A stretch of DNA of 33,781 nt from a virus (IMGVR_UViG_640753025_000002), one strand, 5' to 3'; positions 1 through 31,161 are shown, numbered from the stretch's first letter. Notes: generated by a model from the letters alone, not told the origin. Numbers and translations: made by a program.

Positions 1-1032
1 TCAAAAACTTGCTATTGATGTTGGTAGTGTTGCCAGCGGATTAAACCGTAATGCAGTTTCCAGGTGATCCGGTGCCAGATGTGCGTAACGCATAGTCATT
101 TTTATATCGTGATGCCCGAGAATTTTTTGTAAGGCCAGGATATTTCCACCCGACATCATGAAGTGCGCCGCAAACGTATGGCGCAGAACGTGTGTCAGTT
201 GACCGCGAGGGAGCACGATAGACGTTTTTTCCATCACGGATAAAAATTGAAAATAGCAGTCTGTAAAGAAATTGAACCCATCAAGCGCCATGATCTCTTC
301 GTAAAGCTCTTTACTGATAGGGATGCTTCTGTTTTTCTTCCCCTTCGTTCTTACAAAGGTAATTCGGTATTTGGTCACCTGTGAGCGGGTAAGATTTACG
401 GCTTCACGCCAACGTGCGCCTGTGCTTAAGCATATCTTAACTACCAGTGCCAGAATTGGGTCCTGACGTTTGCAATCAGCCAGCAATTCAACAATCTGCT
501 CATGGGTAAGCCATGCCATCTCTTTTTCTGCGATGGTGAATTTTCGCATGTTCTCCAGTGGGTTCGGATACGACCATTCGCCCAGGCGGGATAGTTCGCT
601 AAAAACACTACTTAGATAGCTTTGCTCCAGGTTAATGGTGACCGGGCTTGCTCCTTTCTTCCATTTCTCGCTGAAGTAGATCTCACCTGTCAGGCGTTTA
701 TCTCGATAGTGGGCAAACATTTTAGATGTGAGATCAGTTGCAAGGGGATTGCCCAGAGCGTCAACCATCAGCAGCAATTTGTCATAGACATGCTGCCCAG
801 CAGTCAGTGATTTACCATGTAGTTTGAACCATAGCTCAACCACGTCTTTCAGTGTTCGACGATCCACTGATTCACCCAGCCAGGGCTTTGCTTCGGTTTC
901 TTCCATCGTGTGACGCTCAAAAGCCAGTGCTTCGCCTTTGGTGGCGAATTGTTTACGCACACGACGCCCACTACGTCCGGCGGGGTAACATTCGCAAAGC
1001 CATTTTCCTGTGGTGAGTTTTCGTACAGCCAT
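1..1032 (-). CDS. int: Tyrosine recombinase / phage integrase (P2 Int family)
   Basis: Translation begins MAVRKL... (P2 Int begins MAIKKL...) and carries C-terminal catalytic motifs (ARWREA, HVLRHTFA, MRYAHL). GGAGG-like RBS precedes the ATG at 1032. The in-frame upstream extension to 1188 in the ORF track is not supported by homology. Confidence 0.9.
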   Translation of the reverse strand: MAVRKLTTGKWLCECYPAGRSGRRVRKQFATKGEALAFERHTMEETEAKPWLGESVDRRTLKDVVELWFKLHGKSLTAGQHVYDKLLLMVDALGNPLATDLTSKMFAHYRDKRLTGEIYFSEKWKKGASPVTINLEQSYLSSVFSELSRLGEWSYPNPLENMRKFTIAEKEMAWLTHEQIVELLADCKRQDPILALVVKICLSTGARWREAVNLTRSQVTKYRITFVRTKGKKNRSIPISKELYEEIMALDGFNFFTDCYFQFLSVMEKTSIVLPRGQLTHVLRHTFAAHFMMSGGNILALQKILGHHDIKMTMRYAHLAPDHLETALRFNPLATLPTSIASF

Positions 1033-1220
1033 AAAAAATGCCCTCCAATAGAGAGCATTTTTACTGTATGTATAACCAGTGTCAATGTATGAAATCCTGC
1101 GACCATACATCTCACTGAAGCCATAATGAAGTAGGCTATTCTTTTTGCTATGTGAGCATGTAACTTTTGCGGTTAACCTGTGGCTCATTTTTATTTTAGG
1201 CGCAGATATAAAAGCAAAAG

Positions 1221-1427: not shown

Positions 1428-1997
1428 CTATTTAACATACTTGACTGTTAAGCTTATAATTTTACCAATTATTTCAATGTCTTCTATCTTGCATTCGAAG
1501 GCTCTGTTTCCACCCTCGACGAAGATTCTTCCACCGGGTAAACGAGTAATGTCACGGATCGTTATTTCGCCATCAATACTTATTACCCATTTACCATCAC
1601 GTATATCATCAAATTCCTTATCACAAATAAATTCAGAATTATTATCTGTGATTACAAAAAGATTCTTGAATGCCGACGGTAGAAATTCTCTATCGAAAAT
1701 ATAAAAACCGTCTTCACACAAGGCCCCATCAGATAATACATATTTAGCAACTTCCATAGTATTTGTATTACCTGAAGTTTGCTTTGAACCATGCCCGGTT
1801 GTGAGCCAATTAAGCGAGGTGCCTGTTTCAAGGGCGCACTGGATTACCCATTCTGCTGGGAATGAGTCACGCATGTAGCGTGTGGCGAGTGTACTTTTAG
1901 AGATTCCTAAATGATCGCACAACGCCTGTCGAGTCTTGAATCCATAAGCTTCTACCATGCGCTCTATAGCGCCTCGTCCGCCTTTCTCCAAATTCAT
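1428..1997 (-). CDS. cI: CI-type immunity repressor (186 CI-like; N-terminal HTH, C-terminal oligomerisation domain)
   Basis: About 190 aa; conserved pattern AYGF...LS.RY.R...CALETG..L.WL.TG.G typical of 186-type CI; ATG at 1997 preceded by GGAG; divergent from apl/cII. No LexA-like Ser-Lys autocleavage motif seen. Confidence 0.8.
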   Translation of the reverse strand: MNLEKGGRGAIERMVEAYGFKTRQALCDHLGISKSTLATRYMRDSFPAEWVIQCALETGTSLNWLTTGHGSKQTSGNTNTMEVAKYVLSDGALCEDGFYIFDREFLPSAFKNLFVITDNNSEFICDKEFDDIRDGKWVISIDGEITIRDITRLPGGRIFVEGGNRAFECKIEDIEIIGKIISLTVKYVK

Positions 1998-2021
1998 GGT
2001 CACTCCAAGTGAACTTTTATC

Positions 2022-3700: not shown

Positions 3701-3927
3701 TGGCTGATGCAATGGATCTCGTACAGCAGCGCGTTGAAGAAGAACGCCAGCGCCATATCCGTGCTGCCCGTGCCAAAACACCGGGCGTGTCTCGCGTGCT
3801 TTGTATTGAATGTGAAGCGCCAATTCCGCCAGCACGCCGCCGCGCCATTCCGGGTGTGCAGCTTTGCATTACCTGTCAGGAAATCGCAGAGCTGAAAGGC
3901 AAACATTACAACGGAGGTGTTGTATGA
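3700..3927 (+). CDS. TraR/DksA-family C4 zinc-finger protein
   Basis: 75 aa with CxxC-x17-CxxC (CIECEAP...CITCQ), typical of phage TraR-like zinc fingers; AGGAG RBS. Confidence 0.65.
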   Translation: MADAMDLVQQRVEEERQRHIRAARAKTPGVSRVLCIECEAPIPPARRRAIPGVQLCITCQEIAELKGKHYNGGVV

Positions 3928-4781
3928 GCACCATCCTGAAATGGGCGGGAAATAAAACCGCCATTATGTCCGAACTGAAAAAACATCTTCCTGCTGGCCC
4001 GCGACTGGTTGAACCTTTCGCGGGGTCCTGTGCTGTGATGATGGAGACGGATTATCCCAGCTATCTGGTTGCGGATATTAATCCTGATTTAATCAACCTC
4101 TATAAAAAGGTTGCCGCTGATTGTGAATCGTTTATATCTCGCGCCAGAGTTTTATTTGAGATCGCAAACAGGGAGGTGGCTTATTACAACATAAGGCAGG
4201 AGTTTAATTACTCAACTGAAATTACTGATTTCATGAAAGCGGTATATTTCCTGTATCTCAATCGTCACGGTTACCGTGGTTTATGTCGCTATAACAAGAG
4301 CGGGCATTTCAACATTCCCTACGGTAATTATAAAAATCCGTATTTCCCTGAAAAAGAAATTCGCGCATTTGCAGAAAAGGCCCAGCGAGCAACGTTTATC
4401 TGCGCCAGCTTTGATGAAACGCTGGCGATGTTGAAGGCGGGAGATGTGGTGTATTGCGATCCGCCGTATGACGGTACGTTTTCCGGCTATCACACTGATG
4501 GTTTCACTGAAGATGACCAGTATCACCTGGCATCCGTTCTTGAACATCGGTCATCAGAAGGACATCCGGTCATTGTTTCTAACAGTGACACATCCCTGAT
4601 CCGTTCGCTGTATCGCAATTTTACTCACCACTATATCAAGGTAAAACGCAGCATCGGTGTGGCAGCTGGCGAGGGTAAATCAGCAACAGAAATCATTGCT
4701 GTTTCCGGGCCGCGCTGCTGGATGGGATTTGATTATTCGCGTGGCGTGGATAGTTCTGCCGTGTACGGAGTACGTGCATGA
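3924..4781 (+). CDS. dam: DNA adenine methyltransferase (Dam, N6-adenine GATC MTase family)
   Basis: Begins [11 protein letters not shown]; AdoMet motif FAGSCAV and catalytic DPPY motif (gatccgccgtat near 4447); GGAGG RBS before the ATG at 3924; the upstream extension to 3864 is rejected. Confidence 0.85.
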
Positions 4782-7192
4782 GTCATGCCGATATGAACAA
4801 CTGCTGCGGCTTTAACGAGGCTGCCGCAGCGTTCTCATGGAACAGCCCGAAAAAGGCCATTAACCCTTATCTGGACCCGGCGGAAGTTGCGCCGGTTTCT
4901 ACGCTTTCAAACCTGATCACTCTGTACGCTGCCGATAACGAGCAGGAACAGTTGCGCCGCGAGGCACTGAGTGATCAGGTCTGGGAGCGTTATTTCTTTA
5001 ATGAATCACGTGATCCTGTCCAGCGCGAAATGGAGCAGGATAAGCTCATTAGCCGGGCAAAGCTGGCGCATGAGCAGCAGCGTTTTAATTCAGACATGGT
5101 CATTCTGGCGGACGTCAACGCCCAGCCTTCCCATATCAGCAAGCCGCTGATGCAACGTATTGAATACTTCAGCAGCCTGGGCAGGCCAAAGGCTTATTCC
5201 CGCTATTTACGTGAGACGATTAAGCCATGTCTGGAACGACTGGAGCATGTACGCGACAGTCAGCTATCTGCATCTTTTCGCTTTATGGCAAGCCATGAAG
5301 GGCTGGACGGCCTGCTGATCCTGCCTGAAATGAGTCAGGATCAGGTGAAACGCCTGTCCACCTTGGTAGCTGCGCATATGAGTATGTGCCTTGATGCAGC
5401 TTGTGGTGATTTGTATGCCACCGATGACGTTAAGCCAGAAGAAATCCGCAAGACATGGGAAAAGGTGGCAGCGGAAACCCTGCGTCTGGATGTCATCCCG
5501 CCTGCGTTTGAGCAACTCCGTCGGAAAAGAAACCGCCGTAAACCCGTGCCCTATGAACTCATTCCGGGTTCGCTGGCGCGTATGCTGTGCGCCGACTGGT
5601 GGTATCGGAAATTGTGGAAGATGCGTTGCGAATGGCGGGAAGAGCAGTTGCGTGCTGTCTGCCTGGTCAGCAAAAAAGCATCTCCCTATGTCAGCTATGA
5701 AGCCGTGATGCATAAACGTGAGCAGCGCCGTAAGTCACTGGAGTTTTTCCGTTCTCATGAACTGGTGAACGAAGACGGAGACGCGCTGGATATGGAAGAT
5801 GTGGTAAACGCCAGCAGCAGCAACCCGGCGCATCGTCGCAATGAGATGATGGCCTGTGTTAAAGGTCTGGAGCTTATCGCGGAAATGCGCGGTGACTGCG
5901 CCGTTTTCTACACCATTACCTGTCCGTCACGTTTCCATTCCACGCTCAATAACGGCAGACCCAACCCGACATGGACAAATGCGACGGTAAGACAAAGCAG
6001 CGATTATCTGGTCGGTACGTTTGCTGCATTTCGTAAGGCGATGCACAAAGCCGGGTTGCGCTGGTATGGCGTGCGGGTGGCTGAGCCGCATCATGACGGC
6101 ACAGTTCACTGGCACCTGTTGTGTTTCATGCGCAAAAAAGACCGCCGCGCCATTACTGCATTGTTGCGTAAGTTTGCTATCCGTGAAGACCGTGAGGAGC
6201 TGGGCAATAACACGGGGCCGCGCTTTAAGTCTGAGCTGATTAACCCGCGAAAAGGAACGCCGACAAGCTACATCGCGAAATACATCAGTAAGAACATTGA
6301 TGGGCGTGGTCTGGCTGGCGAAATCAGCAAGGAAACGGGTAAATCCCTGCGTGATAACGCTGAATACGTTAATGCCTGGGCGTCTCTGCATCGTGTTCAG
6401 CAATTTCGCTTCTTTGGTATTCCGGGGCGTCAGGCGTACCGTGAATTGCGATTGCTGGCTGGTCAGGCGGCAAGGCAACAGGGTGACAAAAAAGCAGGTG
6501 CGCCGGTACTGGATAACCCGCGCCTTGATGCCATTCTGGCTGCTGCTGATGCTGGTTGTTTTGCCACCTACATTATGAAGCAGGGCGGCGTACTGGTTCC
6601 CCGCAAATATCACCTTATCAGAACAGCTTATGAAATTAACGAAGAGCCGACCGCCTATGGCGATCACGGTATTCGTATTTATGGCATCTGGTCACCCATT
6701 GCAGAGGGCAAGATTTGTACTCATGCAGTGAAGTGGAAAATGGTTCGTAAGGCCGTTGACGTTCAGGAGGCGGCAGCCGACCAGGGCGCTTGCGCCCCTT
6801 GGACTCGTGGCAATAACTGTCCCCTTGCTGAAAATTTGAACCAACAGGAGAAAGATAAATCAGCTGATGGGGACCCCAGAACGGACTTTACCCGCATGGA
6901 TGACAAGGAGTTGCACGATTACCTGCACAGTATGAACAAAAAGGAGCGCCGGGAACTGGCTGCAAGGTTACGTCTGGTGAAACCGAAACGGCGTAGAGAC
7001 TACAAACAGCGAATTACAGACCATCAACGACAGCAGCTCGTCTATGAACTGAAATCCAGAGGATTTGATGGCAGCGAGAAAGAGGTCGATTTACTCCTTC
7101 GCGGCGGCAGTATTCCGTCAGGAGCAGGCCTGCGTATCTTCTATCGGAACCAGCGTTTGCAGGAAGATGATAAGTGGCGGAACCTGTATTAA
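4778..7192 (+). CDS. A: Rolling-circle replication initiator/endonuclease (P2 gpA family)
   Basis: 804 aa; HUH-type motif [13 protein letters not shown] and the tyrosine pair [12 protein letters not shown] seen at the P2 A active site; start overlaps the dam stop (ATGA). Confidence 0.9.
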
Positions 7193-7287
7193 TTACGCTG
7201 GTTAACAATTCGTGCTCTTAATAATACCAGGCATATCAAGCTGATAAGCGTAAAAAAAACGTTTTACATCAGTAAGATTATTATATA

Positions 7288-7303
7288 CTGTAAATATAAA
7301 CAG
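7288..7303. promoter_or_regulatory. LexA operator (SOS box) CTGTAAATATAAACAG
   Basis: Exact CTGT-N8-ACAG with an AT-rich spacer, overlapping a TATACT -10-like hexamer, 44 bp upstream of the 62-aa ORF and DinI-like ORF; analogous to the LexA-controlled p95/tum promoter of phage 186. Confidence 0.7.
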
Positions 7304-7346
7304 TGGTTATACATACAGTATTTCTTGTGGTGTCATAGGAGGAAAG

Positions 7347-7535
7347 ATGCAGGACTATTTTTTGGAGTCTTTGAAGCTCCAGCGCATTGATTTTTTTCTT
7401 AAGCTTGTAGCGGCTAGTGAGTGTAGTGATGAAGAGAAGGGGCTGGCTCTGCAGTGGGTTTCTGAATTGACTGATGAACTCATGGCAAAAATCAGAAGCC
7501 ACGAATACAACCGCTCAATGGATGTCATCAGCTGA
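7347..7535 (+). CDS. Hypothetical protein (62 aa), first gene of the SOS-controlled module; possible antirepressor component
   Basis: AGGAGG RBS 4 nt upstream of the ATG; immediately downstream of the LexA box; acidic small protein. Confidence 0.45.
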   Translation: MQDYFLESLKLQRIDFFLKLVAASECSDEEKGLALQWVSELTDELMAKIRSHEYNRSMDVIS

Positions 7536-7545
7536 GGTGACTTTT

Positions 7546-7779
7546 ATGCGCATTGAAATAATGATCGATAAAGAGCAGAAGATTAGCCAGTCTACCCTGG
7601 ACGCCCTTGAATCCGAGCTTTACCGCAATCTGCGCCCCCTGTATCCCAAAACGGTAATCCGTATCCGTAAAGGTAGCTCTAACGGTGTGGAACTGACCGG
7701 ACTGCAACTGGACGAAGAAAGAAAACAAGTGATGAAAATTATGCAGAAGGTGTGGGAAGACGACAGCTGGCTGCATTGA
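7546..7779 (+). CDS. DinI-family protein (DNA-damage-inducible protein I homolog)
   Basis: 77 aa; begins MRIEI... and ends ...KIMQKVWEDDSWL, alignable by eye to E. coli DinI (MRIEV...ILQETWESADDWF); GAGGTGA RBS. Confidence 0.75.
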   Translation: MRIEIMIDKEQKISQSTLDALESELYRNLRPLYPKTVIRIRKGSSNGVELTGLQLDEERKQVMKIMQKVWEDDSWLH

Positions 7780-7834
7780 TTTTGTCAATAGACGCTTGTT
7801 TTTACTAATCAAAAAGGGTTACATATGAGTGAGA

Positions 7835-7867
7835 GGCGATGTCAATCGGATATCGCCTTGTTTTTTG
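7835..7867 (+). terminator. Putative rho-independent terminator after the SOS module
   Basis: Stem GGCGAT / ATCGCC with an 11-nt loop, followed by TTGTTTTTTG. Confidence 0.5.
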
Positions 7868-7892
7868 TCAAGAAAAGAATAATAGGCTAAAA

Positions 7893-8570
7893 ATGAAAAT
7901 TAATAATGTAGCGTTACCAATATCTCTTGCTGTAATCCTAACTGGTTGCGTGCCACATGCTTCTAACCGAAATATCACTGCTATTGAAGTGGTGAAGCCT
8001 GCTATTGGGCAAAGTGCTACCGCCTACATGGGCGATCCCATTATCACATCTGCTACTGGATTTAAAACGGACGTACTAGAACTTGGTGCGGCTAATGGTG
8101 CATTGTCTTCTATCGCTGCTGGTACATATTGCAGTGAGGGGAATGGAATTTACCGCAATTATCATAACCCTCAAGCTGTTGCGTTAAAAAATCTCTATGG
8201 GCAAATCGGTAACTATGTTGATTATGTTAGTTACGATGCTGCAAAAAATGAGATATCACCGCCAAATGGTACTTCTTATACTGCATCAGAAATTTCTATC
8301 AAACGTGTTCCTGATGGGCTGTGTCGAGTTAGTAACTCATTGGTTAAGACTATCGAATACAATGGAAATGCAGGCGGTGTAATGAAGTTCACCTATCGTG
8401 AATTTGCAAACGATATGGCTCGTGCAGCATTTACAACAGATTTTTCTGTAGATTCTAAGGGAAGTGACGTTATCGCTTACAAAGGTGCCAAGTTCAAAGT
8501 GAACAAGGCTGATAACTCGTCTATTTCTTATACAATTATTTCTGGCTTTGACAAGGCTGTCACGTTCTAG
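7893..8570 (+). CDS. Lipoprotein of unknown function (226 aa)
   Basis: Signal peptide with lipobox LTGC (MKINNVALPISLAVILTGC); AT-rich relative to phage core genes; lies in the variable region between A and cos. The ORF-track start at 7839 runs through the upstream terminator and is rejected. Confidence 0.6.
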   Translation: MKINNVALPISLAVILTGCVPHASNRNITAIEVVKPAIGQSATAYMGDPIITSATGFKTDVLELGAANGALSSIAAGTYCSEGNGIYRNYHNPQAVALKNLYGQIGNYVDYVSYDAAKNEISPPNGTSYTASEISIKRVPDGLCRVSNSLVKTIEYNGNAGGVMKFTYREFANDMARAAFTTDFSVDSKGSDVIAYKGAKFKVNKADNSSISYTIISGFDKAVTF

Positions 8571-8674
8571 TTTTCACGCTTACTGAGTATGTTACGATTT
8601 TGCACATTCTGCATAAGCGCGCATGTCTATGCTGCATGAGATCGCATGATCGTTTGAGGATCTTTTGTGTTAAG

Positions 8675-8699
8675 GCCCGCCAGTTCTGGCGGGCTTTTG
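8675..8699 (+). terminator. Rho-independent terminator downstream of the lipoprotein gene
   Basis: GCCCGCC-(AGTTCT)-GGCGGGC hairpin followed by TTTTG. Confidence 0.6.
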
Positions 8700-8743
8700 C
8701 GTAGATCATGCAGGTGCATGAAAACCACTACATAAAGCGGGCA

Positions 8744-8762
8744 GGCGTGGCGGGGATACGAG
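8744..8762. other. Probable cos cohesive-end site (GGCGTGGCGGGGATACGAG)
   Basis: Strong resemblance, from memory, to the 19-nt cohesive end of P2/186 (GGCGAGGCGGGGAAAGCAC-like); located in an intergenic region on the Q-proximal side of the genome as in P2. Confidence 0.45.
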
Positions 8763-8855
8763 CGCGCGCAATAAGTGTTTATACCAAAATATTGTCTTAT
8801 GATATCTTTATCGGATTACTCTGGAAGTTCTATAGCGTCATAAAGGATTTTTTTA

Positions 8856-10247
8856 ATGAACGAAAAACTAACTGAATTAAAAGAGAAACTAGATAATTTA
8901 CATACAACACTTAATGGTCTTGTATTCCCTGTGGAAGATTTTATAAACCTTGGGCCGTACACATTTCCTTTTTTACATAAAGATGATCTGATAGAACTAC
9001 CAAAAATGTTATCTGATAGAATTAATCAGATGCAGGAATTTGTACCATCTTCAGATGACATTGCAGTAATTGATGCGCTCATTTACACTCTGGATCATGC
9101 TCAGCAAAATATTAATCATATAAACAATGGTAACGCATCAGTTCAACAGACCGCTATACCATCTTATGTTATTTCAATGTTATATATCTCTCATAGGATT
9201 AATGACCTTTTTTCATTTGAGAGGCTGAAAGATAGAAATTTATTACCAAAGCAAATTTTACGCAGATTAGAATTATATAATTCAGGTATATCTGCAATTG
9301 CAGCTGAAACTGGTAATATAGAAGAGAAAATTAAAACTATAAATGAAGCATATGATGCAGCCGAGAATCTACCGACAACAGTAAAAATGCTTCGTGAAAC
9401 AAATGATGAAGTTAAAAATGTTTACAATAGCGCAGTTGAGCATTGCAGAAATATTAATGGCATGCTTAAAGAGACTGAAGAGAACTCCAAAATCGTAGAT
9501 GAGGCCAGACAAGAAATTTTGGCGCTGAAACAGAATGCAAGCAAGGATGCAAAAGATTATTTACAATCTCTCCGTGAAGAAGCTCAGGGTTATATTAATA
9601 AATGTGAAGAGGCATTTAGAACTACTACTTCAAAAGGTTTGGCTGGGGCATTTCAAGATAAAGCAGAAAAATTAAACCGGAGCATACGTTGGTGGGTATG
9701 TGGACTAATAGGTGCTTTGGTTGCAGGTGCTGCTGTTGGTTATACGCGTTTACATGCTCTCGAAGCATATCTGTCAAACCCTGACGCATCAGGTATAAAG
9801 TTAGCTATTCAACTTTTACTCTCCATTTTAAGTGTTGGAGCACCATTATGGTTTGCTTGGTTAGCAACGAAACAAATTGGTCAGCGATTCAGATTGGCAG
9901 AGGATTATGAATTCAAGGCCTCAGTATCCAAAGCTTATGAGGGATATAGAAGAGAAGCTGTCCAACTTGATAGCGACTTTACCCAAAGGTTATTTGGTAA
10001 TGCACTTACTCGACTGGAGGAGCCGCCATTAAGATTTGTTGAAGAAGCTACCCATTCATCGCCTATAATGGAAATGTTATCATCGGAAAATTTTAAGCAT
10101 TTCTTAGCTAATGGTGGCGATAAAATCGATTCAATTTTAGAAGGTGCAGGCCTTTCTAGAAAAGGTAAAGTCGAACAAACGCGCCATTTTAATAAGGATG
10201 TGATCCAGCCTGTAAATGAAACTTCAAACAAACCAGAAAATGATTAA
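8856..10247 (+). CDS. Membrane-associated protein of unknown function (463 aa): N-terminal coiled-coil-rich domain plus a two-helix transmembrane hairpin; candidate defence/abortive-infection effector
   Basis: Very AT-rich ORF with an AAGGA RBS; two hydrophobic helices (WWVCGLIGALVAGAAVGY and IKLAIQLLLSILSVGAPLWFAWLA) after about 265 aa of K/E/N-rich helical sequence; no NTPase or nuclease motif recognisable by eye; sits between cos and Q. Confidence 0.7.
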   Translation: MNEKLTELKEKLDNLHTTLNGLVFPVEDFINLGPYTFPFLHKDDLIELPKMLSDRINQMQEFVPSSDDIAVIDALIYTLDHAQQNINHINNGNASVQQTAIPSYVISMLYISHRINDLFSFERLKDRNLLPKQILRRLELYNSGISAIAAETGNIEEKIKTINEAYDAAENLPTTVKMLRETNDEVKNVYNSAVEHCRNINGMLKETEENSKIVDEARQEILALKQNASKDAKDYLQSLREEAQGYINKCEEAFRTTTSKGLAGAFQDKAEKLNRSIRWWVCGLIGALVAGAAVGYTRLHALEAYLSNPDASGIKLAIQLLLSILSVGAPLWFAWLATKQIGQRFRLAEDYEFKASVSKAYEGYRREAVQLDSDFTQRLFGNALTRLEEPPLRFVEEATHSSPIMEMLSSENFKHFLANGGDKIDSILEGAGLSRKGKVEQTRHFNKDVIQPVNETSNKPEND

Positions 10248-10272
10248 AAATAGGGGCGTTAGCCCCCTATTT
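10248..10272. terminator. Bidirectional rho-independent terminator between convergent genes
   Basis: AAAAATAGGGGC-(GTTA)-GCCCCCTATTT hairpin flanked by an A-run and a T-run, between the 463-aa gene (+) and Q (-). Confidence 0.5.
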
Positions 10273-10274
10273 CA

Positions 10275-11303
10275 TCAAAGCATATACTCATTAAAATTAA
10301 TTACATCATCATCTAACCAAGTGTTCAGTTCCAGTATTTTTTTTTGTAATACTGTTAACTCATTTCTAACAAATACTTTGCAGGCTTTCTCCACATCCCC
10401 AAATCCCCCAACATTATTAGGCATTATCCCCATCATTTGTGGCGGTACACGGTGCGCAGCCATCATGTCGTCGCGGCTGACATTTTTGATATTCAGAAAT
10501 TCATCCTTCGCCGCGACTTCTGACAACGGGATAATCTGAAGACCATCCTTTTTGCCGTTAGGTGAGTACATAAACAGGTTGCGGAAGTTGCCTGGACCTT
10601 TGGCGCTTTTCATTGCGTTGCGGAGGTTGTTCACATCCTCCTGGTTCTGCGCAGCATCGGTCATGTACATGATGAAGCCAGCATGACTGCCGTTAATGTA
10701 ATACTTTCGGCGGAACAGCGTGGCGGACTCGTTGAGCAGGGCTGACGGAATGGCAGAAAGATAACCGGGCAGGCCGTAGATCTCCTGGTTGATGTCCGGT
10801 TCCATCAGATGAAAGATGCTGCCTTTCGTGAACTGATATGGCTGCGTGGTCATACCGTATTGCACAAACCAGTAGGTATCCAGGTCTAACCCGCGTCGGG
10901 TATATTTTGCCAGGGCAGGTTCAAGGGCGATAACTTCACCGAAGCGGTTCGTGCGTTTCTCCAGGTAGGCGTTACCAAATACCAGATAGTCCTGCACAAA
11001 ACGCGAAAAAGCCTGCTGGCTGAGCAGCGGGTGAGGGATGTAGGTGCTGGTCAGAATGTTGCACTTTACTGCAATCGGGGAACTATGATGCACGGCAGCG
11101 CGGAAGGTGCGCGCCAGTCCGTCAAAGCTGACGGGCGGCTCATACCAGCGGTCCATCTGTACGCATTCCACATAATCCAGCAGTTCTCGGCGGTCCAGAA
11201 CAGGAACGGGATCGCCGAAGCTGAATGCTTCGGCTGTAGTTTGACTTTTAAGCTGGATCTGTTTCGTCGCCGCAGCGCGGTTCTTCTTACTCTTTCCCAT
11301 CAA
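10275..11303 (-). CDS. Q: Portal protein (P2 gpQ family)
   Basis: 342 aa (P2 Q is about 344 aa); position and orientation match P2 Q, with its start overlapping the end of P. Confidence 0.9.
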   Translation of the reverse strand: MMGKSKKNRAAATKQIQLKSQTTAEAFSFGDPVPVLDRRELLDYVECVQMDRWYEPPVSFDGLARTFRAAVHHSSPIAVKCNILTSTYIPHPLLSQQAFSRFVQDYLVFGNAYLEKRTNRFGEVIALEPALAKYTRRGLDLDTYWFVQYGMTTQPYQFTKGSIFHLMEPDINQEIYGLPGYLSAIPSALLNESATLFRRKYYINGSHAGFIMYMTDAAQNQEDVNNLRNAMKSAKGPGNFRNLFMYSPNGKKDGLQIIPLSEVAAKDEFLNIKNVSRDDMMAAHRVPPQMMGIMPNNVGGFGDVEKACKVFVRNELTVLQKKILELNTWLDDDVINFNEYML

Positions 11304-29520: not shown

Positions 29521-30617
29521 ATTTCAGCTCTGAACTGCTTAACAAAGGCAACAAAACTCCCGCATTCAGCATCAGTATTGAGGGCAGGGATATCACCACA
29601 GTGCTGGACAACCGCCTGATGGGGCTGACGCTGACGGATAACCGGGGCTTTGAAGCAGACCAGCTTGATCTGGAGCTGGACGACGCCGACGGAAAAATCG
29701 TGCTGCCGCGTCGTGGTGCGGTCGTTACGCTGGCGCTGGGTTGGAAGGGGCAGCCGCTTTTCCCGAAAGGGGCATTCACGGTGGACGAGATTGAACACAC
29801 TGGCGCACCGGACCGCCTGACTATCCGGGCGCGAAGTGCTGATTTTCGGGAAACGCTGAATACCCGCCGTGAAAAATCGTGGCATAAGACCACCGTCGGG
29901 GAAGTGGTGAAGGAAATAGCCTCGCGGCACAAGCTGAAGATGGCACTGGGTAAAGACCTGTCGGATAAGCTCGTAGAGCATATAGACCAGACTAATGAGA
30001 GTGACGGCAGTTTTCTGATGCGGCTGGCGCGCCAGTACGGTGCCATCGCGTCGGTGAAAAATGGCAATCTGTTATTCATCCGGCAGGGACAGGGCAAAAG
30101 CGCCACTGGTAAACCACTGCCGGTGATCACTATCACACGCAAGGACGGCGACAGTCACCGCTTTACCCTGGCAGATCGCGGAGCCTACACGGGGGTAATT
30201 GCCAGCTGGTTGCATACCCGCGAACCCGCGAAGAAAGAAAGCACTACGGTGAAGCGTAAGCGCAGGACTAAGAAGCAGAAGAAAGAGCCGGAAGCGAAGC
30301 AGGGCGATTACCTGGTGGGGACGGATGAAAACGTGCTGGTACTTAATCGCACTTATGCCAACCGGAGCAACGCTGAACGGGCAGCGAAAATGCAGTGGGA
30401 ACGCCTGCAACGTGGCGTTGCGTCATTCTCGCTACAACTGGCGGAAGGGCGGGCAGATCTCTACACGGAAATGCCAGTGAAAGTCAGTGGCTTTAAACAG
30501 CCGATAGATGATGCGGAATGGACCATTACGACTCTGACGCATACCGTAAGCCCGGATAATGGTTTTACGACCAGTCTGGAGCTTGAAGTGAGGATTGATG
30601 ATTTCGAAATGGAATGA
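29517..30617 (+). CDS. D: Tail/late-control protein (P2 gpD family)
   Basis: 366 aa (P2 D is about 387 aa); GTG start overlapping the U stop, with a GGGAGGG RBS; last tail gene before ogr. Confidence 0.85.
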   Translation: MNFSSELLNKGNKTPAFSISIEGRDITTVLDNRLMGLTLTDNRGFEADQLDLELDDADGKIVLPRRGAVVTLALGWKGQPLFPKGAFTVDEIEHTGAPDRLTIRARSADFRETLNTRREKSWHKTTVGEVVKEIASRHKLKMALGKDLSDKLVEHIDQTNESDGSFLMRLARQYGAIASVKNGNLLFIRQGQGKSATGKPLPVITITRKDGDSHRFTLADRGAYTGVIASWLHTREPAKKESTTVKRKRRTKKQKKEPEAKQGDYLVGTDENVLVLNRTYANRSNAERAAKMQWERLQRGVASFSLQLAEGRADLYTEMPVKVSGFKQPIDDAEWTITTLTHTVSPDNGFTTSLELEVRIDDFEME

Positions 30618-30926: not shown

Positions 30927-31012
30927 CGCTGCCGCCATTTTGTCGCCATCGTTAAAAAATAGTGTTTCTAACATCATGATTTTAAACAGCTTAAATTTCA
31001 GGCAACAAAAAA

Positions 31013-31049
31013 CCCATCAACCTTGAACCGAAATGGCGGGGTTGATGGG
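31013..31049 (-). terminator. Hairpin with T-run on the minus strand; putative terminator for ybjL, or part of the prophage/host junction
   Basis: CCCATCAACC / GGTTGATGGG inverted repeat, preceded on the plus strand by AAAAAA (a T-run on the minus strand); about 110 bp beyond the ybjL stop. Confidence 0.4.
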
Positions 31050-31161
31050 CTCCACAAAATGGGGACATCAAAGAAAAGCAGTGGCACTAATTAAGACTGA
31101 TGCCCTGCGGAAAAGTTCTGCGGTTGTGCAAAAAAATTTCATTTTCAGGGCAACTTCAGTT

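Follow-up and report, generated by a model that had tools for sequence, protein, structure and literature searches.

The cos-flanking accessory hotspot of a Fels-2/186-type prophage in Escherichia coli HS: phage backbone, two cargo slots and candidate envelope-level anti-phage genes

Introduction

The locus described here raises the question of how some 3 kb of DNA, lying between two conserved genes of a prophage, comes to differ so sharply in composition from its surroundings, and what the genes within it may do for the phage or for its host. The DNA analysed (IMGVR_UViG_640753025_000002; 33,781 nucleotides, referred to throughout as the window) is identical to approximately 917-951 kb of the Escherichia coli HS chromosome (NC_009800.1) and contains a complete prophage of the P2 family, of the Fels-2/186 type. 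Its genes are arranged in the order integrase, CI-type repressor, early genes, Dam-like methylase, replication gene A, the region in question (positions 7200-10274), portal gene Q and on to P, and late genes as far as ogr, after which host genes follow. An earlier note on this DNA had taken the region to be an AT-rich island of four unrelated cargo units, namely a LexA-controlled module of two open reading frames (ORFs), a lipoprotein gene, a probable cos site and the gene for a membrane protein of 463 amino acids (aa), and had likened it to an accessory or defence hotspot. The reading preferred here, to which a probability of about 0.8 is attached, is that the region is the cos-flanking hotspot of Fels-2/186-type phages, a composite of phage backbone and exchangeable cargo; the cargo would supply envelope-level anti-phage factors.

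Results and Discussion

Base composition of the A-Q interval

The region has a G+C content (GC) of 0.391 (39.1%) and is the lowest 3,075-bp stretch of the window; across non-overlapping segments of that length (n=492) the minimum was 0.443 and the mean 0.542, so that the sharp departure described in the earlier note is borne out. The units that it listed are all present (LexA box, two small ORFs, lipoprotein gene, cos-like 19-mer and 463-aa ORF), with three hairpins between them (Table 1). The dip is nevertheless uneven when judged by GC at third codon positions (GC3), the codon-usage check that had been proposed: the lipoprotein gene (0.31) and the 463-aa gene (0.25) deviate from the 0.56-0.70 of backbone genes and are foreign-looking, whereas the 62-aa ORF (0.52) and the DinI-like ORF (0.58) are backbone-like and resemble A (0.56) and Q (0.59).

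Low GC might instead reflect functional constraint on a regulatory and packaging region rather than foreign origin, and the intergenic segments are indeed the most AT-rich (0.318 over the 154 bp of promoter region at 7193-7346, and 0.267 at 8770-8855). Most of the dip, however, is made by the two cargo coding sequences, whose distribution among relatives is also patchy. For the coding parts this explanation is refuted by GC3 and by the pattern of presence and absence, and as an account of the whole region it is highly improbable.

A split tum module belonging to the phage backbone

The LexA box and the two small ORFs that follow it are a split tum SOS module, and form part of the phage backbone rather than the cargo. 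The sequence CTGTAAATATAAACAG at 7288-7303 is the sole exact match to CTGT-N8-ACAG in the window; about 0.5 such matches would be expected there by chance, and it is the position of the box, not the count, that is informative. The predicted box is kept in Fels-2, and relative to its neighbours it stands where the LexA site and the p95 promoter are annotated in phage 186. At the annotated right end of 186 the order is A, p95 with its LexA site, tum, the partial terminator t95a, orf97, t95b and cos, and the elements in the window follow the same order as in this SOS operon, with a hairpin before the downstream gene, a terminator after it, and then cos. In PSP3, tumA and tumB stand in place of the 186 tum gene. 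In both Fels-2 and PSP3 tum is split by a stop codon, and in PSP3 the antirepressor activity resides in the upstream gene of the pair (Lemire et al., PMC3121763).

The two ORFs differ in how directly they can be assigned. The DinI-like protein shows 78% identity to PSP3 TumB and 41% to residues 71-145 of 186 Tum, its C-terminal half. The 62-aa ORF is equivalent to Fels-2 STM2728 and agrees with TumA in position, size (62 against 60 aa) and operon order only; it counts against the assignment that it gave no BLASTP alignment to 186 Tum (N-terminal half) or to PSP3 TumA. Because similarity to Tum and TumA is undetectable, its product is presumed to be an antirepressor from position, size and conservation, with the precedent of PSP3 (PMC3121763). 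The lack of similarity might be expected if antirepressors track their cognate repressors. The module of the window further departs from those of 186 and PSP3 in that its downstream gene encodes an unrelated lipoprotein, not Orf97.

Conservation was assessed in the best 80 of 599 IMG/VR loci, whose portal proteins are 93-96% identical, the A-Q interval being complete in 73, and prevalence in 5,426 complete E. coli genomes. The 62-aa ORF is present in 73/73 of the complete intervals, at 88-100% identity. The DinI-like ORF is full-length in 66; it has no match in six and is truncated in one (L042), and therefore TumB is either dispensable or itself exchangeable. The seven loci concerned (L019, L035, L042, L048, L052, L070 and L074) all retain the 62-aa ORF. 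The module as a whole was found in 1,125 of the E. coli genomes, mostly at 95-99% identity.

These observations bear on the proposal that the whole 3 kb is a single foreign island of four unrelated, exchangeable units that include the LexA module. All four units do lie in the low-GC stretch, separated by hairpins, and a few relatives lack the DinI-like gene. On the other side, the tum module is near-identical in some thousand E. coli genomes and universal among the complete prophages; its GC3 of 0.52-0.58 matches that of A and Q; it corresponds to the essential SOS-induction operon of 186 and PSP3 (PMC3121763); and its low overall GC comes largely from the promoter region. The single-island proposal is thus largely refuted and retains very little probability, and with it falls the claim of the earlier note that the LexA-controlled pair is one of four cargo units.

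Two cargo slots on either side of cos

Once the tum module is assigned to the backbone, the exchangeable DNA resolves into two slots abutting cos. The cohesive-end sequence is recognised by its similarity to that of 186 (Table 1), and the sequence upstream of it resembles P2 cosR; exactly one match to GGCGNGGCGGGG occurs per locus in all 73 complete loci. Neither an exact nor a 3-mismatch match to the full 186 cos 19-mer was found, the last 6 nt being different, and the assignment of 8744-8762 as cos is regarded as probable. Ahead of it, a hairpin at about 8672-8697 followed by TTTT is kept in Fels-2, RE-2010 and 4LV2017. The hairpin preceding the lipoprotein gene lies in a 91-nt stretch with a fold z of -2.3. 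Comparison with Rfam revealed no RNA family within the region.

The limits of the slots were set by breaks in homology. In loci with an empty slot 1, homology is lost directly after the DinI stop codon (7779/7780) and regained at 8621. In Fels-2, RE-2010 and 4LV2017 homology breaks at 8769/8770, directly past the cos core, and resumes only inside Q. Consistent with this, megablast of 6700-10800 against phage records gave 95-97% identity from 6700 to about 8771 in Fels-2, RE-2010 and many Klebsiella phages, a conserved span comprising the end of A, the two small ORFs, the terminator and cos, with the lipoprotein gene in some records; Q was conserved too. The 3' end of A is 95-100% identical among related prophages.

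Between these fixed points the content varies widely. For slot 1, the DinI stop and cos are 204-4508 bp apart across the 73 loci, and the slot is empty in 21 (204-205 bp); for slot 2, cos and the Q stop are separated by 182-2860 bp. Non-overlapping ORFs of at least 70 aa form 40 clusters in slot 1, against 62 in slot 2, which upholds the view of A and Q as conserved anchors around exchangeable content. In slot 2 of loci L012-L091 almost every ORF (106/108) lies on the strand of the 463-aa gene, converging on Q. Strands in slot 1 are mixed, with 44 ORFs on the plus and 34 on the minus strand.

The particular residents of the window are uncommon. The lipoprotein gene occurs in 11 of the 73 loci and the 463-aa gene in none; among the E. 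coli genomes 1,277 carry the cos/Q flanks, 50 the lipoprotein gene and 13 the 463-aa gene, while 45 further genomes carry a paralogous type of the latter at about 67% nucleotide identity. One of the 13 copies, in E. coli ESDR8 (NZ_CM169472.1, 1345427-1347953), is interrupted by IS1B. Neither cargo module was found to be flanked by direct repeats that would hint at transposition or site-specific insertion; because such repeats are absent, the simplest mechanism would be replacement of cargo by recombination in the conserved flanks.

Relation to the published P2-family hotspot

The A-Q region is the cos-flanking accessory and defence hotspot of P2-family phages that has already been published. 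Odegrip and colleagues, in 2006, reportedly gave one of the accounts of this gpA-gpQ hotspot. Rousset et al. (2022) described 1,650 arrangements in 18,150 E. coli loci of the A-Q hotspot and validated several of its systems (PMC9122126); Vassallo et al. (2022) placed four new systems at 'P2 defence hotspot #1' (PMC9519451); and a 2026 survey in NAR covered thousands of P2-like prophages (PMC13586616). The locus of the window shares with the published hotspot its anchors A and Q, its position next to cos, hypervariability among near-identical phages, a size of about 3 kb and AT-richness. In the same place its relatives carry retrons, Abi proteins, PD-T7-1, DarTG and 3HP. It differs in that its own residents fall outside the named or PADLOC-modelled systems. 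The published accounts treat A-Q as one locus, whereas here a conserved tum module and two slots split by cos are distinguished; this anatomy is a refinement and not a new phenomenon.

The contents of the two slots in relatives illustrate the point. Annotated slot 2 genes include a retron St85 effector with its reverse transcriptase (4LV2017), an AIPR protein (RE-2010), a 565-aa hypothetical protein (Fels-2), a Hypoth_Ymh protein (813R9) and Abi-alpha. When representatives of the slot 2 clusters were compared with PADLOC, matches were obtained to retron reverse transcriptases (including retron RT II-A) with an NDT effector, RT-Toprim, AbiU, AriA, PD-T7-1, an NsnA/PD-T4-2-like protein and the candidate pair PDC-M03A/B, and 7/10 of the commonest clusters had a match. 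Slot 1 of relatives holds the 3HP system (Hp1-3), PD-T4-7, a type II restriction-modification system and DarT with the macro-domain protein DarG, as well as an HNH protein, DUF6694 and several unknowns. Recognised defence systems thus do occur at this locus in relatives, as the earlier note expected of a hotspot; the search of the two larger ORFs against defence databases that it proposed gave a PADLOC match for neither. For the residents of the window, 'defence' is accordingly a contextual inference.

Comparison with the type phages bears on the analogy with P2 old/tin. In P2 these genes lie between A and cosR, that is in slot 1, and like the lipoprotein gene they are non-essential lysogenic-conversion cargo. 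The analogy that the earlier note drew with their position therefore holds for the lipoprotein gene, between A and cos, and fails for the 463-aa gene on the other side of cos. Even in slot 1 there is no homology between old/tin and the resident gene, and while old/tin have a promoter of their own and are read leftward, the lipoprotein gene points the same way as tum. The interval from cos to Q, home of the 463-aa gene, is empty in P2 and 186; in 186, W (the homologue of Q) begins 176 bp past cos, at the other end.

The 463-aa membrane protein of slot 2

The 463-aa protein is predicted to be an integral membrane protein with two transmembrane (TM) helices: its hydrophobic segments, each of about 20 residues, lie at approximately 282-302 and 317-343, and basic residues border each of them on the side opposite the short loop that joins them. 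It belongs to phrog_34659 and to a large family, in which 1,467 representatives at 50% identity were retrieved at E<=1e-3 and 424 at E<=1e-30, nearly all of 410-470 aa. They come from Proteobacteria, Bacteroidota, Verrucomicrobiota, Nitrospirota and other phyla, in soil, water and host-associated bacteria. Mean identity to 45 homologues is 44-48% over residues 1-245 and 83% over residues 246-405. Among 142 distant relatives the conserved block consists of a motif ahead of TM1, the two TM helices and the segment after TM2. The juxtamembrane motif reads WFAWLATKQIxQRFxLAEDYxFKxSxSKAYEGYRREA, and the motif after TM2 (E349, D350, Y351, K359, Y361, E362, G363 and Y364) is invariant. In an AlphaFold2 (AF2) model, which is all-helical, residues 1-120 form an N-terminal bundle that is well predicted, and a very long helix leads into TM1. 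The best Foldseek matches of the model, to the MLKL executioner four-helix bundle (E 0.2), Vipp1/PspA and Rx-CC, were not significant and were rejected.

The family is found in varied settings. Homologues of 51-66% identity occupy the same cos-Q slot in P2-like prophages of E. coli, Erwinia and Serratia. Others persist in decayed P2-like prophages from which portal, terminase or capsid genes are gone (L007, L010 and L176-L178), where the retained gene adjoins ogr or host genes; this retention is consistent with selection for a host-beneficial function. A Pectobacterium homologue is part of an island bounded by an integrase, which also has KAP NTPase, HxsD/radical-SAM and DUF3800 genes, and in a Providencia phage the homologue stands alone between early and lysis/terminase genes, in a moron-like position. 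No conserved partner gene was found across 80 species. A tally of nearest neighbours in the same species, made uncontrolled, included four integrases, four resolvases, restriction-modification systems of types I, IIG, III and IV, Old, PbeA and mad2. Taken together, these features fit a stand-alone, horizontally mobile, host-beneficial gene. No mention of WP_001003256 was found in the literature, and neither cargo protein was found, by accession or by sequence, in the part of the Rousset 2022 supplementary tables that was covered.

The lipoprotein of slot 1

The slot 1 protein carries a lipobox, L-T-G-C, at MKINNVALPISLAVILTG-C, in which G18 and C19 are invariant and L16 nearly so among 22 homologues; it is thus a predicted lipoprotein and substrate of signal peptidase II. 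Two further cysteines are invariant in the homologues. The family is narrow, being confined to 27 clusters at 90% identity in the Enterobacterales, and corresponds to phrog_1353. The 90%-identity cluster that holds the protein has as representative, and among some of its members, a 308-aa 'branched-chain amino acid transaminase', a naming that looks like an artefact of database clustering.

A longer reading of 243 aa, from 7839, would start inside the hairpin and is unlikely; the position of the lipobox and the homologues favour the start at 7893. It is the 243-aa form that is annotated in Fels-2. That reading (7839-8570) matches the length of 186 Orf97 (186 positions 29604-30335) by coincidence, and homology to Orf97 was rejected in spite of the shared slot, the BLASTP E value being 4.7. 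The slot itself is of interest, for the 186 record states that plasmid expression of orf97 blocks infection by 186. The occupancy of this slot, together with precedents for lipoproteins as exclusion factors, suggests that the protein may act in exclusion at the level of the envelope.

Proposed function of the cargo

On the reading preferred here, a LexA-repressed promoter would drive the split tum genes as the SOS-induction switch of the phage, the 77-aa product serving as a DinI-like modulator of RecA, and the conserved terminator and cos are likewise backbone. The cargo occupies two independent slots abutting cos. Slot 1 is at the position of P2 old/tin and 186 orf97, and the gene in slot 2 is self-contained, having a terminator to itself; once the DNA is packaged in linear form, the two slots would lie at opposite ends of the genome. 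The most likely role of both cargo genes is to serve the lysogen against phages at the level of the envelope. On this view the lipoprotein would be a surface or periplasmic exclusion factor, and the 463-aa protein an inner-membrane-anchored single-gene defence. It is tempting to suppose that the fast-evolving, cytoplasmic N-terminal helical domain of the latter senses infection, and that the hairpin of two conserved membrane helices, with the juxtamembrane segment, stops DNA from entering or impairs the membrane; to go from a membrane protein in a defence slot to such a pairing of sensor domain and membrane effector is to infer. An anti-phage role is the most likely reading of the 463-aa protein, at somewhat less than even odds. 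The more specific proposal is more tentative still, namely that this protein founds an unnamed, widespread family constituting a new single-gene, membrane-anchored anti-phage system, with N-terminal sensing and with exclusion or abortive infection executed by the TM hairpin and juxtamembrane motif, and that, independently, the lipoprotein might represent a new factor of surface exclusion whose expression goes along with that of the SOS operon.

Envelope exclusion proteins of prophages are well known, among them the lipoproteins Llp of T5 and Cor of phi80, SieA of P22 and gp15 of HK97, as are membrane-acting abortive infection (Abi) effectors such as RexB and AbiZ. One of the defence hits of Vassallo in 2022 is also said to have been a lipoprotein. 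The likeness is in gene type only: these too are small, self-contained prophage genes, non-essential to the phage, whose products are lipoproteins or inner-membrane proteins. They have no sequence or fold similarity to the cargo proteins, PADLOC including AbiZ and the Vassallo systems.

Several observations weigh against an anti-phage role. The lipoprotein has no match in PADLOC, Pfam, NCBIfam or PDB sequences, nor among solved folds above noise. The 463-aa protein has none in Pfam, NCBIfam, PADLOC or PDB sequences beyond coiled-coil noise, the weak matches to JetC (6e-4) and DUF4126 (0.004) falling below cut-offs. Its AF2 model is only moderate (predicted local distance difference test, pLDDT, 70.8; predicted TM-score, pTM, 0.32) and gave no Foldseek match in the PDB at E<=0.001, and a promoter scan revealed no convincing promoter for the gene. 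Distant members of the family also adjoin housekeeping genes (aconitase, gyrB), and the neighbour tally has no control set. Among untested systems cloned from the hotspot just 3/8 were active, and the hotspot also carries non-defence genes, for example partition systems and the cdt toxin (PMC9122126).

Some of these points lend themselves to another explanation, that the cargo genes serve lysogenic conversion with no anti-phage role, through envelope remodelling, stress tolerance, colonisation, virulence or stabilisation of the prophage. The partition systems and cdt toxins of the same hotspot (PMC9122126), the lack of resemblance of either protein to a known defence protein, and the housekeeping neighbours of distant family members would all be accommodated by it. 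In its favour, too, are lipoproteins such as Bor of lambda, which acts in serum resistance. The 463-aa family, for its part, is spread over many phyla and habitats, which argues against a host-specific virulence role; it is encoded by a single gene with no partner; it recurs in a slot where seven of the ten commonest alternatives match defence models; and in several genomes it stands beside restriction-modification, Old, integrase or resolvase genes. On balance lysogenic conversion alone is judged unlikely.

A further explanation is that the 463-aa protein serves the phage itself, in DNA ejection, packaging or lysis timing, or as an anti-defence or anti-satellite (anti-P4) factor. The gene directly adjoins cos and the packaging genes, and P4 shares the cos site of P2 and has its own hotspot there (PMC9122126). 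Nearly all close relatives, however, are without the gene and yet otherwise intact phages; it is kept in degraded prophages unable to make particles; and many of the genomes that carry it show no phage genes in its vicinity. A phage-serving role is on this evidence very unlikely, and a function for the lysogen is preferred.

Coordinates and further observations on the window

The features discussed are collected in Table 1.

Table 1. Features of the A-Q interval and its anchors (positions in the window; '.' denotes no strand).
Feature	Position	Strand	Evidence
Replication gene A, left anchor, backbone	4778-7192	+	PF05840 Phage_GPA, 1.3e-127
Predicted LexA box TACTGTAAATATAAACAGTG, in AT-rich A-tumA intergenic promoter region	7285-7304	+	exact CTGT-N8-ACAG
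62-aa ORF, positional equivalent of TumA (antirepressor half of split tum), backbone	7347-7535	+	phrog_698, 5.9e-38
DinI-like TumB, 77 aa, backbone, occasionally absent	7546-7779	+	PF06183, 6.6e-23
Cargo slot 1 (DinI stop to conserved pre-cos flank)	7780-8620	+	homology breakpoints
Terminator-like hairpin ahead of lipoprotein gene, 11-bp stem and T-run; positional analogue of 186 t95a	7833-7859	+	
225-aa predicted lipoprotein gene, slot 1 cargo	7893-8570	+	
Conserved intrinsic terminator before cos, analogue of 186 t95b	8672-8701	+	fold -23.6 kcal/mol, z -4.9
Probable cos cohesive-end sequence GGCGTGGCGGGGATACGAG, 19-mer	8744-8762	.	first 13 nt = annotated 186 cos
Cargo slot 2 (cos core to Q stop), GC 0.358	8770-10274	+	homology breakpoints
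463-aa predicted membrane protein gene, slot 2 cargo, WP_001003256	8856-10247	+	two hydrophobic segments
Bidirectional terminator-like hairpin between 463-aa gene and Q	10247-10273	.	z -3.2 and -2.9 on the two strands
Portal gene Q, right anchor, backbone	10275-11303	-	PF04860

Three other places in the window deserve mention. A second dip in GC (0.35-0.36), at 1000-1750, lies between the integrase ORF (1-1188, minus strand) and the ORF for a 191-aa CI-type repressor (1428-2003, minus strand), reaching into the latter. The gene for the Dam-like N6-adenine methyltransferase (3864-4781, plus strand) ends 4 bp inside the start of A; in related loci it is assigned to MethyltransfD12, and the Fels-2 annotation describes it as similar to the retron Ec67 methylase. 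Some relatives (L005 and L179) have an extra 273-aa ORF or a second methylase between this gene and A, and the junction may be another small variable spot. Finally, the host flank at 31004-31082 (minus strand) also adjoins P2-like remnants in E. coli (L007 and L010) and Serratia (L176), which suggests a conserved attachment site at or near rybB.

Implications

The hotspot itself is nothing new, being among the best-documented defence hotspots of E. coli. For the mining of such loci the present description amounts to a simple rule: the LexA-tum module, the pre-cos terminator and cos are to be subtracted as backbone, and the cargo is then to be read as two independent slots flanking cos, of which slot 2 holds genes that are nearly always co-directional. 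The 463-aa protein is a concrete candidate, whose large family spans many phyla and is modelled in none of Pfam, NCBIfam and PADLOC; if it proved active, a membrane-based single-gene system would be added to the catalogues and hundreds of protein clusters would be annotated. The lipoprotein gene, in the slot of 186 orf97, is a second candidate. The remaining interest of the locus lies in a testable candidate family and in a cleaner anatomical description of the hotspot.

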